Below, one piece after another: positions 12,621-64,000 of a DNA stretch of 64,000 nucleotides. Every line of letters begins with the position of its first letter. Position 1 is the first letter of the stretch. A model generated the notes under the pieces. The model saw only the letters and a list, made by a program, of their open reading frames with translations, made no database searches and was not told the origin of the DNA. The stretch is from Octopus vulgaris (taxonomy: Eukaryota), in the NCBI GenBank assembly GCA_951406725.2, contig OX597822.1, positions 43,772,001-43,836,000 of the forward strand, given 5' to 3'. A program made the position numbers and the translations under genes.

Positions 12621-12886
12621 CTCACCCTATATATATATATATATATATATATATATATATATATATATATATATATATATATATATATATATATATATAT
12701 ATATATATATATATATATATATATATATATATATATATATATATATATATATATATATATATATATGTATATATGTATATATATATATATATATATATAT
12801 ATATATATATATATATATATATATATATGTAGGTCCCGGGTTAACCACAGTAAATAAGGTACTCAATACATAGCAGAGTAAAATTA

Positions 12887-12994
12887 ATTTATTATATAGA
12901 AGGAGCTTCTACAGGACTAGAACTGTTTCATTCAAAAGATTTCTCTTGAATGAAACAGTTCTAGTCCTGTAGAAGCTCCTTCTATATAATAAAT
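12887..12994. repeat. Fold-back, ~49-bp arms
   Basis: 12887-12935 pairs with 12946-12994. Lies between TA tracts, next to the family A array. Confidence 0.9.
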
Positions 12995-13172
12995 AAATAT
13001 ATATATAACGTGACGTATTTTTGCCATTTCAATATGGCTAACCCCTAAGGGTGGATGCTACTGTAGTTTTTTAGCCCCAGGGCACACTCCTCCAGCTGGC
13101 CATAGACACACTTTCTGTGTCCTGTCAGTATTTGCAAAGGGAAGACATCCTTCCCGTCTTCAACTTATGATA

Positions 13173-13217
13173 CACACGGACTCGAGTTTCGAGGTATTGA
13201 CCTCTCGTCAGCGTGTG
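13173..13217 (-). ncRNA. Type I hammerhead ribozyme, family A, inverted copy
   Basis: Exact reverse complement of the same motif. Confidence 0.9.
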
Positions 13218-13454
13218 ACAATCATAGTTGTCGCCGAGAATTAGATTTCCTTCACAAATACTTATACTTTTTCCAGCGTCCACTGTCGCTGATATTGAAA
13301 AAGTGAAATCAAACAATGATAAATATCAATGTGAGTTATATACAGTAGCGGTAACACAACGTGACGTATTTTTGCCATTTCAAAATGGCTAGACGCTGGA
13401 AAAAGTATAAGTATTTGTGAAGGAAATCTAATTCTCGGCGACAACTATGATTGT

Positions 13455-13499
13455 CACACGCTGACGAGAGGTCAATACCTCGAAACTCGAGTCCGTGTG
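13455..13499 (+). ncRNA. Type I hammerhead ribozyme, family A, copy 1
   Basis: cacacg-CTGACGA-GAGGT(caat)ACCTC-GAAAC(tcga)GTC-cgtgtg. Canonical core, 6-bp stem I extendable by tatgat/atcata, 5-bp stem II, palindromic stem III ACTCGAGT. Predicted cleavage after C13493. Confidence 0.92.
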
Positions 13500-58776: not shown

Positions 58777-60299
58777 ATTTTAATTCAAAAAGAGGCAGAA
58801 GAGGACAGCGTTACTGTAAAGTAAGTATTGGGGCAAATTCGAACCAGCGTGTGTGAAATGTCATAAGTAGTGATATTAACTGTCTACATCATGTACATGA
58901 GAGGAGAAAGATGGTTGCCTTGCATTCAAGTGAAGAAATATACGCTGCAAGCATTCACATTTCTTCTTGAACTCTAGGAATTTCTATAACGAGGGAACTT
59001 GCAGCCTAATCGTTGGGTATCAGGATATATTACCTGTTATTTAAGCGAAATTTTGAGGCTCATTAACAAGTTGAATAACCTCAAATTATTAAGCCAGATA
59101 TGTTCTTATGTTACTTGGGGAATAGGGGAAGTTATTGAGTTGCTCGAGAGGAAAGAGATTCGTACACCGGTATTTATCAAGCACGAAATGAATCCGGTAA
59201 GTGCCAATGCACAAAATTCTTGGTTCTGAATCATTGATAAATGCCAGTTCATGAAATTCTCTGCTGTTGGGTCTCTCTCCAACTTCTGTCGAGTAATTAA
59301 TATACATACATGCATACATACATAAATACATACATACATACATACATACATACATACATACATACATACATACATACATAAATACATGCATATGAAACGA
59401 GAGGGAAAATAGAGGAAAAGAGATCAGGCATAAAACGCCTCTCGTCAGCCATCTACTTCAGAATCAGGGTAGTTTCGGCGCACTTAAATTCGAATACATA
59501 ATAATATATAACCACTTTTATGCAAGCGCTAGTGGTGGTAAACTTCATCGACATAGCGGTCATTACAAGTTTAAATATGAGGGCGGAAAATACGAGTGTG
59601 ACAGAAACTTAAGGACAAATTTTATATATGAGAGATTTTATAAATAGAACGAAAAAAGAAAACTGTATTAACTTTCGAATTTATATGCAAAAATAAATTG
59701 GTGTTATTGCTAATCCGAACAAAAGAACCGAGATGTAAGGTATTTCGAGATGGTAGATAGATGAGAGAAAACGTGAGCGATGATCAGAAAAAAATTAGAG
59801 GCTGTAAAAGAATGCGCAAGAGGAATTAAGAGTAGGTAACAGAGAATGCTTGCAGTGTATATTTGTATACCTGAAGGCAAGACAACTATCTTTCTCCTCT
59901 CCTGTACATGATAGAGCCACACGCATTTCACAAACACGCTGGCTGGAACTTGCACGTTGTTGGGTAAGGTGTTAATGCGTTTTCAACAATATTTAATTTA
60001 CTGCAAGATTGCCCTCTTCTGCATCTTTAATAATTACAATACAGGACAAGGTAACAATGCGAATAAGATTATGGGAATATAACTTACCTCCTGTAAAAAC
60101 ACCAGGAACGTGTGAACTGGATGAAACTGACCGTGAGAAAGGTCGAATGACCACGAAGCATTTTCGATCTTAAGTAAGATACGCAGTAGATCAAGTAGAA
60201 TATATGATAATATAAATATATATATGCATATATATGCATATATATATATATATATATATATATATATATATATATATATATATATATATATATTGATAA

Positions 60300-61000
60300 A
60301 AATGGTAAGACCAACATACGCACAACATCGTTTTACGCGGATGAAGATCTTGTTTAACGCGCGGTGTCGCATGTACAGACACCATTTTACGTCGCCAGTA
60401 ACGATTTGGTAAAGAAATCGTTGCTTGTGTCCATGAGTTGAGTGGTGACGAGCAAGCAAACCAGCGGAAATGTGGGTCGTTGAATTTTGTTGTTGTCACT
60501 TAAAGCATGCGGAACCATGCTCCATACTTCTGTACTTTTCACATCGAGTAAAGATGCTTCTCTATAGCAGTGTGGGAGCATTCTATTCTCTCTGCCTGTT
60601 GCTTTGATGAGAATTTTTGTGCAAAGTTGGTTTAATCACACTTCATCGAACTCAACTGGGCGGCCAGAACGAGGTGCGTCTTTGAGGTCAAAATTTCCAT
60701 TTTTGAACTTGGCATACCGATCACGAGCAGTTCTTTCAGCTATGGCACCCTCTCCATACACAGCAATAAATGTCGCGAGCAGCTATTGCGGCCTTAGAAC
60801 CCTGAGTAAAAGCAAAAAGGAGGTGTCGAAAATAATCGTTATTCTTAACTTGACATTCCATTTTAATGATCTGAAAATAAACGAAAATTAACTAAAATTA
60901 ACTAGAAAAAAACCCCAAAAAACAAAATAGATTCCAAAATTCAAAAAGGCAAGAAATTCCAAAATTTTAAAAAACCGTGGAAACTTAATTGCCAACCTGA
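60300..61000 (-). mobile_element. Mariner 5' fragment
   Basis: Motifs MVPHALSD and FLYQIVTGDVKWCLY. Truncated at a TA tract. Confidence 0.82.
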
Positions 61001-63445
61001 TATATATATATATATATATATATATATATATATATATATATATATGTGACGTGTTTTTTTATTACAGTCAAGCTAAACTCCACCCTCTGTTATTCAGAGT
61101 TTCACGTTACCGGCCATCAGACAGTTGCGATAATAAAAACTAGTGAACAAATTTTATAAATTGTGAATATATATAAGCGTTTATGGGTGTTTAGATTCAA
61201 TATTTTATTCTACCCGGCGTCATTACTTGTGTGTGCGTGTGCATGAGTGTGCATATATTTATATATATACAAGTATGACTTACACAGGTATATATATATA
61301 TATGTATGTATATGCATATATATGCGTGTATAGAAATTTTGAAGTAGTGTACAGATATATACATATATTTACTATATATTTATTTGTATATATATATATG
61401 TATATATATATATATATATATATATATATATATATATATATATATATATATATGTATCTATATATATATATATGTATCTATATATATATATATATATATA
61501 TATATATATATATATATATATGTATACATATATATATATGTATATATATATGCATATATATATATGTATATATATATATATGTATACATATATATATGTA
61601 TATATACATATATACATACATATACATACACATATATATATATATATATATATATATATATATATATATATACACCAGAGTTAAGCATATTTCTGTTTGT
61701 GAGTGTAGAATGAATTAATATTATACCTCATAACATAACTACTTATTTTTCGCTTCATTTCAGCCAATATACATACAACAGTTTCATTTTCTCGAAATTT
61801 CATACTTCAGTACATTTTACAGGGCCTACATATAGCCGAATGGAAACTTATATATTCACATCCACGTGCTTTAAATTATATACTTCTTGTTTACGCATAA
61901 ACACGTTTACAGACAAGCCCACACATGTGAACATAAACATAGTATTTGTATACATATATAGTGTGTGTATGTGTGTGTGTGTGTGTGTTTGCGTGTGCAG
62001 GTGTGAGTAACTGCGTGGATGCATGTGTGTGGATGTATGCCACTGAGTGTCTGTGTGCGTGCGCATGTGTTGTATGTGTTTTTGTTTTCTTTTTGTGTGT
62101 ATGTAAATATTTATTTCTGTTCTGCATGTATCTATTATCTGTCAGAGCATATATCCATATACACACATGCGCACACTCGCACACACATTACACACACACA
62201 TTAACACATGCGTGTATGTGTATACATATGTATATGTATATGTATCTATTTATCACTCTCTCACTCTCTCCTTATATATATATATATATATATATATATA
62301 TATATAACCGTATATATAGATCGTTCGTGTATGTATATATATAAATATATATATACCTATATATATATATATATATATATATATATATATATATATATAT
62401 ATACCTGTCTATCAATTTCTCTACCTTATCTACCTGCACATGTATGTACGTCGAACGTTAGAGATACCCTAATGTTCTGCCAAAATTTTAACATCCAGTT
62501 CGCTCAGCTACCCAAATATTACCGACTGGTTCACGAAGCCAGCCCGATTTTGACCATAAATTTCGTAAAATCTTACCGTTTGTCAATAAAATATGACTTT
62601 ATGAATATAATATTAAAATACCCTAATATCTAGATTCAAAATAAGCCGGTGTCGAAATGCGCCTGAAGGGGAAAAAAGAGCGAATATTTTATATGTATAG
62701 TATACTGGCAAAGTTTATTTGATGCTACTACGGATTACACAATATAATGTTTCATTGGTTTGAGAAAGTGAGAGAGGGAGAAGGAAAGGGAGGGAGACGG
62801 AGAGGTGGTAAGAGGCTGACGCGATATGGGGAAATGGGCAATATGATGGATGTTAGAAAGACACATCCTTCAAACAGCCCCCAAAATATACGGTTTAGGT
62901 GACAGTGTCAATGTATTGTAGAGAGAGGGAAAATACCCATAAGAACAACGCAGGGGTGTCCGTTTCATATATATATACATATATATACAAAGACATACAG
63001 GAAGTAAACAGATACCTATAATTTTCAAAATCTTATTTAATTCGCAAAGCGAACAATTGAGATGTAATTTATAGGAAGGACTACATACTTCAGCATTTAG
63101 TTGAAATTCACTTTGCAGTTTTTAATTCAGAAACTCTTTTTGGCATTTAACTGATGAACTTTGTGATTGTCGCTTGTGGAATTTCTCCCCAATTTTGACG
63201 CAACAATCGAAACAATTCATCTTTAGATTTAGGTTTCTCTCGAGTTTTTTGTATAGCTCTATCTAGTATAATCCAAAGATTTTCAATTGGGTTCATGTCA
63301 GGAGTTTGTCTCGGTCAAGGAACCCTTTTGATCCCATTTTCAGCCAGCCATTGTTGAATCTTTTTCGGTGTGAGACATGGAGCCCCATCTTCCATGAATA
63401 AAAACTCATTTTTCGTTATGTTATCGTGTGAATATATCGGAAATA

Positions 63446-63881
63446 ATAGAAATATTAAAATAACTAAGTCTCTCTAAAAGAGAACAGCGGCAGCGTTCCC
63501 GGAAAATAATAGTTATCGCCATACTAATATGGCATTCTTATAAAAATAAGAAAAAAGCTGTCCGCTTATTAGCTCCATGAGGCCATCGCCTTAAGTTAGC
63601 TATTTGATACACAAACTGTATCCATATAACCTTCGAACAGAGATTGTCGGAAGCGACACCTACTGGCTGGCTACGCTGCATTGAAAAGGGGCAATACCCC
63701 GAAACGCGTCTGTAGCTGCCGGTCAAGTAGTGTGGAGCGACTGACCTCCCTTGTTCGAAGGTTATATGGATACAGTTTGTGTATCAAATAGCAACTTAAG
63801 GCGATGGCCTCATGGAGCTAATAAGCGGACAGCTTTTTTCTTATTTTTATAAGAATGCCATATTAGTATGGCGATAACTAT
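63446..63881. mobile_element. Fold-back insert carrying HHR family F, with 13-bp TSD
   Basis: Inverted arms 63506-63639 and 63752-63884. Direct repeat TATATCGGAAATA at 63433-63445 and 63882-63894. Interrupts a Tc1 reading frame. Confidence 0.85.
63675..63716 (+). ncRNA. Type I hammerhead ribozyme, family F (U3-A8 core variant)
   Basis: gctgca-TTGAAAA-GGGG(caata)CCCC-GAAAC(gc)GTC-tgtagc. 6-bp stem I with one G-U, palindromic ACGCGT. Predicted cleavage after C63710. Confidence 0.82.
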
Positions 63882-64000
63882 TATATCGGAAATAGTTCTT
63901 GCTTAAGTATTTCGATGTATTTTTCAGAGTTTATGATTCCAAAACATTCGATCAGCTCAGAACGACCATTGCTGGTGACAGCTCCCCATACCATTATCGA

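Follow-up and report, generated by a model that had tools for sequence, protein, structure and literature searches.

The 64-kb stretch of the Octopus vulgaris genome analyzed here (G000:C9:43,772,001-43,836,000; hereafter the window) carries six short inserts with type I hammerhead ribozyme folds, which we name A to F (Table 1). The inserts are of known kinds, three being termini of Penelope-like elements (PLEs) and three being retrozymes, and the best full explanation, to which we give a probability of roughly 0.75, is that all six were made by the reverse transcriptase (RT) and GIY-YIG nuclease machinery of PLEs. Three points go beyond the routine: a PLE footprint on retrozymes that have no open reading frame (ORF), a strict two-end rule with both fold-back arms from the same source, and genomic copies of spliced leaders. 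How PLEs form fold-backs and tails, why their introns are retained and what mobilizes retrozymes are standing questions in the field literature, and insertion footprints offer unusually clear clues to PLE copying. The assembly comprises 2.80 Gb in 227 contigs and is microsatellite-rich; L-numbers denote fetched loci of the same genome. Comparisons with published work rest on the openly accessible parts of the sources cited.

Hammerheads were sought with a strict descriptor (C3-G8 or U3-A8 core, stem I of at least 4 bp, stem II of at least 2 and stem III of at least 3), which found 11 in five inserts (A 3, B 1, D 2, E 4, F 1). In 40 shuffles of 500-nt blocks with dinucleotides kept, the same descriptor gave a mean of 0.25 matches and a maximum of 1, and a scored version gave 11 matches in the window and none in 30 of 30 shuffles. 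Both controls rule out chance as the source of the window hammerheads. Insert C is picked up only when stem I may be as short as 3 bp, a relaxation that yields 15 matches in the window and a mean of 1.45 (maximum 6) in shuffles, so C alone is not significant; its fold is retained in its relatives. The type I core (CUGANGA, GAAA and UH, or a compensatory 3-8 pair) with stems I-III, open at stem I, is present in A, B, D, E and F, and in C under the relaxed limits only. A U3-A8 core occurs in D and F and a long stem II in C and E, and helix III is self-complementary in all six inserts, from which dimeric ribozyme activity is predicted. Apart from weak AT-rich matches (best E-value 0.006) the inserts are mutually unrelated; A to E lie in or against (TA)n tracts and F does not, and A, D, E and F have tandem and/or fold-back architecture. 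The description in the initial annotation, of six unrelated inserts with these fold variants, five of them at (TA)n and four with tandem or fold-back structure, thus holds.

Rfam lends support to A and, weakly, to E. Scanned singly, neither of these two reaches the gathering score of RF00163: the three A motifs score 32.2 bits (E=6.9e-6), slightly below the cut-off of 34, E has no match to RF00163 and a weak one (26 bits) to RF00008, and B, C, D and F are absent among the matches listed in the window scan. That whole-window Rfam scan, with no hammerhead among the 150 of 400 matches listed, was dominated by microRNA models on microsatellites, and the general repeat finder behaved likewise. A genome-wide RF00163 search returned 6 matches with 73 of ~263,000 candidates scored and is unusable as a count.

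The proposed common origin of the inserts is read from their ends. Among the best-scoring ~40 candidates per family, the outer ends of the A, B, D, E and F families, read in the hammerhead sense, lie as 3' ends at either of two fixed positions. Nearly all distinct 3' ends (193 of 202) run into (TA)n within 12 nt, compared with 4.5% of unselected positions; the nine others include two internal junctions and the two ends of window F. In every one of the 67 fold-backs that have (TA)n at both ends, one end is of the short and the other of the tail kind (A 12, E 9, F 15, D 17, B 14), the longer arm being the tail arm in 35, the short arm in 29 and neither in 3. The two arms also share a source: 50 variants are fixed in both arms and one is fixed in one arm only, and the private variants comprise 10 present in all units of one insertion, 95 singletons and 6 found in some units. 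Singletons showed no A-to-G editing signature (14 of 180). A reading of the fold-backs as MITEs or DNA transposons is ruled out by their unequal arms, variable centers and ends that differ by the tail. The footprint agrees with the Anolis Poseidon PAc system (PMC11167929), where RT starts at two internal sites whose spacing equals the tail, nicking and extension affect both strands of the target, and a dimer is predicted; that work concerns one family in vitro, whereas here the footprint is read from genomic copies, including fold-backs and copies of putative non-autonomous and spliced templates.

Two side observations concern the sampled loci. The pairs L010/L020 (C1) and L050/L051 (C11) each represent one insertion with shared flanks and are segmental or assembly duplicates. 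Different PLE-type families often share one (TA)n tract or are nested (L019, L081, L112, L153, L187), which suggests that each insertion leaves targets for the next.

Insert D leads directly to an enzyme. Its 251-nt arm has many genomic copies at 99-100% identity, its hammerhead has 690 exact genome matches, and of 25 loci retrieved by means of the non-coding arm, 23 contain pieces of an RT-GIY-YIG ORF that ends ~67 nt upstream of the arm. The full tandem unit of 4.0 kb holds ORF1 (a 495-aa open frame, in another frame) and an intact 811-aa ORF2 with a DKG motif, RT motifs, a CxxxxCxxC linker and a CCHH-type GIY-YIG nuclease; in a domain scan of ORF2, RVT_1 is above cut-off and PF01541, not hit by the query, is present in relatives. 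All 150 nuclease matches scored are 99-100% identical, several of them within intact 811-aa frames. The element is organized in tandem, with a pseudo-long terminal repeat (pLTR), hammerhead, tail and inverted 5'-truncated copy. Judged by sequence, D is the terminus of an autonomous young PLE whose features fit the Neptune/Nematis type (PMC8557442). With endonuclease-bearing (EN+) PLEs of that type (PMC8557442, PMC4209133) it shares the RT with C-terminal GIY-YIG domain, the Zn-finger linker, the upstream ORF1, the (TA)n target, a pLTR with a minimal hammerhead, the tail and the inverted 5'-truncated copy. Nothing essential differs; D is very young and abundant, and its type is set by motifs that suit Neptune and Nematis alike. 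Its U3-A8 core has a precedent in Schistosoma Cercyon (PMC4209133/PMC8557442).

Other Neptune-type sequences are present as well. A decayed ORF remnant at window positions 21818-22651 (+) is 33-38% identical to D ORF2 and has no intact hammerhead downstream. A second family, on the minus strand of L079 (G000:C9:83061984-83065373), has a nuclease 66% identical to that of D and, ~280 nt past the nuclease end, a hammerhead-like motif with an A3-U8 pair, seen in one copy with one mismatch at the base of stem I.

For B, walking upstream reaches an 840-aa ORF that begins ~60 nt past the tail in a 6,838-nt tandem unit. This ORF and six relatives have DKT, RWK (KWK in B itself), a CxCX5C linker, CxxC and CxH and no CCHH, and ~50 of the 150 nuclease matches listed for B are 96-100% identical. 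The relatives of C are 81-90% identical to it; one C locus runs upstream into a nuclease that is 56% identical to that of B and ends ~1 kb before the hammerhead, the stretch between nuclease and hammerhead is common to three further loci, and hammerheads of the C type with a long stem II also occur in two other Hydra-type subfamilies. Pfam recognized neither the B ORF nor the C fragment, a Hydra-type nuclease profile had 0 matches to solved structures, and the single-sequence model of this nuclease is of low confidence (pLDDT 42.7). (TA)n is found at 39 of 40 B ends, and by eye at the ends of C. We assign B and C as termini of autonomous Hydra-type PLEs. With the Hydra clade (PMC8557442) they share, C as far as its nuclease part shows, the DKT, RWK-like, CxCX5C, CxxC and CxH motifs, the lack of CCHH, the hammerhead and the (TA)n target. 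Described members are generally <3 kb, a length that is not defining, compared with 6,838 nt for the B unit, and B further differs from them in a ~4-kb repetitive non-coding part, an asparagine-rich ORF insert, similar to inserts reported in rotifer Penelopes, and spliced leader copies. The non-coding part (equivalent to L238:4450-8480) is GT-rich and internally duplicated, with two copies of the exon-1/donor motif and one locally inverted block.

In full-length B copies a consensus GT donor is separated by 1,125 nt from an AG acceptor, which lies 13 nt before the hammerhead core. In the window copy, which reads as a spliced 5' leader copy of a PLE transcript, the two intron flanks are joined exactly, with no microhomology at the GT-AG borders. 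Among 45 B arms picked with a spliced query, overlapping loci included, 34 are spliced, 4 are spliced with a substitution at the junction and 7 are unspliced; exact genome matches number 75 for the spliced and 299 for the unspliced junction (reversed controls 0), or ~1 in 5 spliced. Most distinct spliced arms (26 of 32) start 22-28 nt before the junction, with 2 shorter and 4 starting further upstream, and 11 of the 32 start exactly 27 nt before it, at the A of an initiator-like motif. The two arms lie no more than 50 nt apart in 13 of 18 spliced fold-back pairs. A pLTR start site and an intron are known for Penelope and Chlamys, with the intron retained in genomic copies, and in the openly accessible literature we found no report of spliced genomic PLE copies.

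Spliced copies could all stem from a single spliced master, or from chance deletion, and would then tell little of the normal template. Four spliced insertions indeed share a variant that is absent from the 7 unspliced arms, which speaks against repeated origin of spliced copies, and a second junction in L122 is ambiguous, with a 2-nt overlap that may mark a deletion. A single master or a deletion is nevertheless unlikely, if worth keeping in mind, given the exact GT-AG borders without microhomology, the clustering of 5' ends at the initiator-like motif, a second and different GT-AG junction in L124 that is independent of the first, and leader copies that end at the start sites with the ORF side missing. 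If two cDNAs are primed on one sense RNA, as put forward tentatively below, spliced leaders would be a further, self-renewing class of short hammerhead inserts that records transcription starts and splice isoforms in the genome.

Inserts A, E and F are of a different kind. They form multimers of closed units of 353, 491-493 and 362 nt, respectively, at 97-100% identity, with longest ORFs of 38, 66 and 38 codons, GC contents of 0.42, 0.36 and 0.42, and 453, 797 and 1,003 exact hammerhead matches genome-wide. Folded as circles, the units are predicted to be far more stable than shuffles (z -7.6, -4.8 and -5.8; 0/40 each). No PLE ORF end was found with the Neptune query upstream of 115 A, 142 E and 37 F hammerhead matches (overlapping loci counted repeatedly), nor with the Hydra query in the fetched loci. 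Five stretches at odd long spacings (2 A, 3 F) contained no PLE ORF, and the 100 E spacings listed fit the unit. F arrays are mostly uniform for hammerhead variants among the 100 matches listed. No RNA data set was listed among public runs as containing these units; contigs from four runs cover the E unit and may be DNA. A, E and F fit the sequence definition of non-LTR retrozymes (PMC7229834), for which B, C and D, linked to PLE ORFs, do not qualify. Published units are 150-450 nt long, and up to ~970 nt in a recent preprint (bioRxiv 10.64898/2026.07.22.740005), each with a type I hammerhead. The shared traits (PMC7229834, bioRxiv 10.64898/2026.07.22.740005) are ORF-less tandem units, here of 350-490 nt, with a type I hammerhead, GC <45%, a highly paired circular fold and co-existence with PLEs. 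Circular retrozyme RNAs have been reported (PMC7229834), and the A, E and F monomers were most likely circularized as well, with a PLE, of whichever family, presumably mobilizing them in trans.

These families differ from published retrozymes in the nature of the evidence. The latter have been linked to PLEs by co-occurrence and pLTR homology, whereas A, E and F themselves bear the PLE end signature of two fixed ends, head-to-head fold-backs and (TA)n; unlike the retrozymes of the preprint (bioRxiv 10.64898/2026.07.22.740005), they have no homologous parent pLTR among the few PLE families sampled. F also stands out by its U3-A8 core and E by its very long stem II. Non-autonomous elements of Chlamys such as MRC1 (PMC8557442) share pLTRs and multicopy head-to-tail insertions with A, E and F, but are algal, belong to a clade with N-terminal EN, generally have no hammerhead and are similar at their 3' ends to autonomous families.

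A, E and F might instead also be pieces of autonomous PLEs whose full-length copies were not reached, in which case all six inserts would be PLE debris. The same test placed B, C and D as PLE termini, many PLE subfamilies exist, and it was the first 100 of the 453, 797 and 1,003 hammerhead positions that were listed. We regard this as quite unlikely, the monomers being closed and multimeric and the five odd-spacing stretches having no PLE ORF; a low-copy parent that shares the pLTR would alter their origin and not their non-autonomous state.

Several relatives of these units were noted. Relatives of A at 76-80% identity (L105:1830-2342, L126:2715-3158) have C at hammerhead position 4 and a helix III that is changed yet palindromic. 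In L244 (G000:C2:202402800-202406400) two A copies lie 3.25 kb apart with an AT-rich satellite before each, a duplication and not an ORF-bearing element. In the F unit of L068 (1943-1990) another hammerhead-like motif, with a U3-A8 pair and a bulge in stem I, follows just past the tail end; it is absent from the window copy and is kept in the diverged relatives L095, L175 and L162.

A single mechanism probably produced all six inserts. The PLE enzyme would introduce nicks into the two strands of a target made of (TA)n or otherwise AT-rich, and cDNA synthesis would begin within the RNA at two set positions, 90-175 nt and more downstream of where the hammerhead cuts, the first giving the short end and the second, 33-105 nt further, the tail end. 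Two cDNAs, one per site and copied from the same RNA or from RNA of the same locus, would stop at random and be joined head to head into fold-backs. The template may be an autonomous PLE transcript, giving the 5'-truncated 3' ends C and D; the spliced 5' leader of such a transcript, giving B; or a short non-coding monomer that its hammerheads would release and that, most likely as a circle, would be copied by rolling circle into the multimers A, E and F. The hammerheads would act as dimers through the palindromic helix III. Two primings on one RNA are what we infer from the paired ends. In its most specific form, a PLE dimer primes two cDNAs, one per internal site, on one sense RNA, be it a spliced leader, a hammerhead-cut circle or a read-through 3' end; this form we put forward tentatively, at a little short of even odds. 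If it is true, retained PLE introns would be due to the choice of the transcript pLTR that is primed rather than to an antisense template, and PLE enzymes would copy animal retrozymes by rolling circle even where these have no recognizable pLTR homology.

Fold-backs could also arise from one self-primed hairpin cDNA, perhaps on an antisense template, which would explain intron retention too (PMC3846280). The two arms always share variants and splice state, and some junctions are palindromic, as at the center of D, both as a hairpin would have it. The arm with the short end is, however, the longer one in 29 of 64 unequal cases, and a plain hairpin model does not fit, because a hairpin copy can neither outgrow its template arm nor gain a tail; spliced arms, moreover, need a sense template unless the source was itself a spliced genomic copy. 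We consider a hairpin origin very unlikely.

Several observations weigh against the proposed PLE origin or against parts of it. Loci for the footprint lean young and complete, because the best-scoring candidates were chosen, and 64 fold-backs remain once two segmental-duplicate pairs and L187 (probably two insertions) are removed. The link of C to an ORF rests on one locus, in which the nuclease part was seen. At the DNA level A, E and F resemble neither the D element nor any of five Hydra-type 3' regions, three of which are too short to reach the hammerhead. Some arrays are mixed, a variant being present in two units out of three or four, and singletons are rarer in internal units than in terminal ones (1.8 and 3.6 per kb, partly a selection effect), so that later local duplication or conversion may have added to the arrays, though it would not account for the variants that arms share. 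A rival reading is that unequal crossing-over enlarged the A, E and F arrays on the spot, in the manner of minisatellites, once a single pLTR-like unit had been inserted and with no circle, a local-amplification route discussed in bioRxiv 10.64898/2026.07.22.740005. Adjacent units that share a variant others lack, and the greater uniformity of internal units, are what it would predict. Growth in place nonetheless appears improbable: multimers occur in both fold-back arms, with non-integer unit counts and ends exactly at the two start sites, units continue past the tail, unlike a solo end, and locus-private variants are common to terminal units and the inverted arm.

Ribozyme activity is the other point at issue. 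Self-cleavage is predicted from the folds, and the monomer folds of B, C, D and F are no more stable than shuffles. Low or no activity in vitro has been published for many PLE and retrozyme hammerheads, with 1/9 Xenopus retrozyme dimers cleaved in vitro (bioRxiv 10.64898/2026.07.22.740005), and hammerhead mutants did not stop PLE insertion in vitro (PMC11167929), so the motif is dispensable in that assay. The hammerheads might accordingly be inactive hitch-hikers on the pLTR. We think this unlikely, since two unrelated families have retained the core with the U3-A8 pair as compensation, and helix III, though it differs between relatives, is palindromic in each (A compared with L105/L126, F compared with L095/L175).

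To place the window in context, we took 220 kb of unselected DNA, made up of 20 evenly spaced 10-kb stretches from contigs 3-8 and the two window flanks. It holds 6 hammerhead matches (shuffles 0-1; one of the six may be chance), a density of 27 per Mb (10-59), or ~3e4-1.7e5 per genome, which is a rough estimate given the small sample. The window has 5 strict inserts where 1.75 are expected, an approximately threefold excess (P ~0.03, uncorrected for the choice of this window), and 93 (TA)n tracts compared with 63 per 64 kb of unselected DNA. The five young families together have ~1.2 exact matches per Mb, so five young insertions in one window mark a local hotspot and not the genome norm. Published counts, made with other descriptors, are 126,247 for axolotl, ~5,000 for mussel and 9,000 for Xenopus. 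At least 10 further unrelated type I hammerhead families, including another with U3-A8, occur in the flanks and the unselected DNA (L214, L216, L209, L029, L145, L003, L107, L163, L001).

Much of the underlying idea is in print. Minimal PLE hammerheads, U3-A8 cores and opposite-strand pairs are described in PMC4209133; one-end tails, inverted copies, (TA)n, the Hydra clade and non-autonomous multimers in PMC8557442; retrozymes with PLEs as likely helpers in PMC7229834; and retrozymes as non-autonomous PLE derivatives in bioRxiv 10.64898/2026.07.22.740005. The suggestion in the initial annotation that such a system at such density was undescribed is overstated, the local excess being about threefold. 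Its proposal of mobilization by GIY-YIG Penelope-like machinery with (TA)n targeting is borne out by the footprint, with mobilization in trans as a presumed step. The inserts are non-coding as they stand in the window, which is not true of the B, C and D families with their PLE ORFs, and a diverse non-autonomous system, as it had been called, describes A, E and F; B, C and D are termini of autonomous PLEs, and for these three that is the case it had named as refuting. For octopus, 31 recently active Penelope-like families have been reported, in a main text with 0 occurrences of hammerhead, ribozyme or retrozyme (PMC13282606). We found no report of cephalopod hammerhead families in the openly accessible literature; Repbase entries or the supplements of PMC8557442 may hold them. 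Our data suggest that counts of solo hammerheads in animal genomes lump together at least three origins, namely truncated 3' ends, spliced leaders and retrozymes. With several very young families whose enzymes are intact beside candidate passengers, the questions of PLE fold-backs, introns and retrozyme mobility can be tested in this genome by counting and in vitro.

Table 1 Positions of the six inserts and their predicted hammerheads in the window
Feature	Position	Strand	Detection or remark
A, fold-back array of a 353-nt ORF-less unit	13007..14066		Left arm minus, short end 13007; right arm plus, tail end 14066
A hammerhead 1, C3-G8 core, palindromic helix III	13173..13217	-	Descriptor, Rfam
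A hammerhead 2	13455..13499	+	Descriptor, Rfam
A hammerhead 3	13808..13852	+	Descriptor, Rfam
B, assigned spliced 5' leader copy of a Hydra-type PLE	24855..25022	-	Flanked by (TA)n tracts; ends at short site
B exon 1, 27 nt	24996..25022	-	First base is the A of the initiator-like motif; exon 2 joined at 24995
B hammerhead	24944..24986	-	Strict descriptor
C, assigned 5'-truncated 3' end (pLTR) of an older Hydra-type PLE	37763..38187	+	Relatives 81-90% identical
C hammerhead, long stem II, 3-bp stem I, partly decayed	37960..38055	+	Relaxed descriptor
D, near-perfect fold-back, assigned last ~253 nt of a young Neptune-type PLE	42082..42620		33-nt tail on right arm
D hammerhead, left arm, U3-A8 core	42224..42263	-	Strict descriptor
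D hammerhead, right arm, U3-A8 core	42407..42446	+	Strict descriptor
E, fold-back array of a 491-493-nt ORF-less unit	46375..48798		Tail end left, short end right; arms meet at ~48165
Unrelated repeat ending in (GAT)n	46726..46902	+	Inserted later inside E
E hammerhead 1, 68-nt stem II region	46605..46711	-	Strict descriptor
E hammerhead 2	47279..47385	-	Strict descriptor, RF00008 weakly
E hammerhead 3	47770..47876	-	Strict descriptor, RF00008 weakly
E hammerhead 4	48569..48675	+	Strict descriptor, RF00008 weakly
F, fold-back of sub-unit-length pieces, 362-nt ORF-less unit	63442..63885		Tail end left, short end right
F hammerhead, U3-A8 core	63675..63716	+	Strict descriptor
F target-site duplication (12-13 nt), left copy	63434..63445	+	
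F target-site duplication, right copy	63883..63894	+	

The window holds five further short fold-backs (12883-12998, 17391-17646, 44728-44999, 48895-49028 and 57054-57189), mostly adjoining (TA)n. The initial annotation had mentioned additional, more decayed hammerhead inserts; these fold-backs have no hammerhead and are probably PLE-type ends truncated downstream of the ribozyme. The one at 44728-44999 is a relative of A at 66-72% identity. The element of the 48.9-kb fold-back also adjoins an E copy in L045. A tRNA search of the window found none. At 50437-51772 (-) there are two open frames that, judged by eye, resemble a non-LTR (LINE) reverse transcriptase, and a 204-codon open frame at 1822-2433 (+), in a GC-richer stretch, may overlap a host exon.

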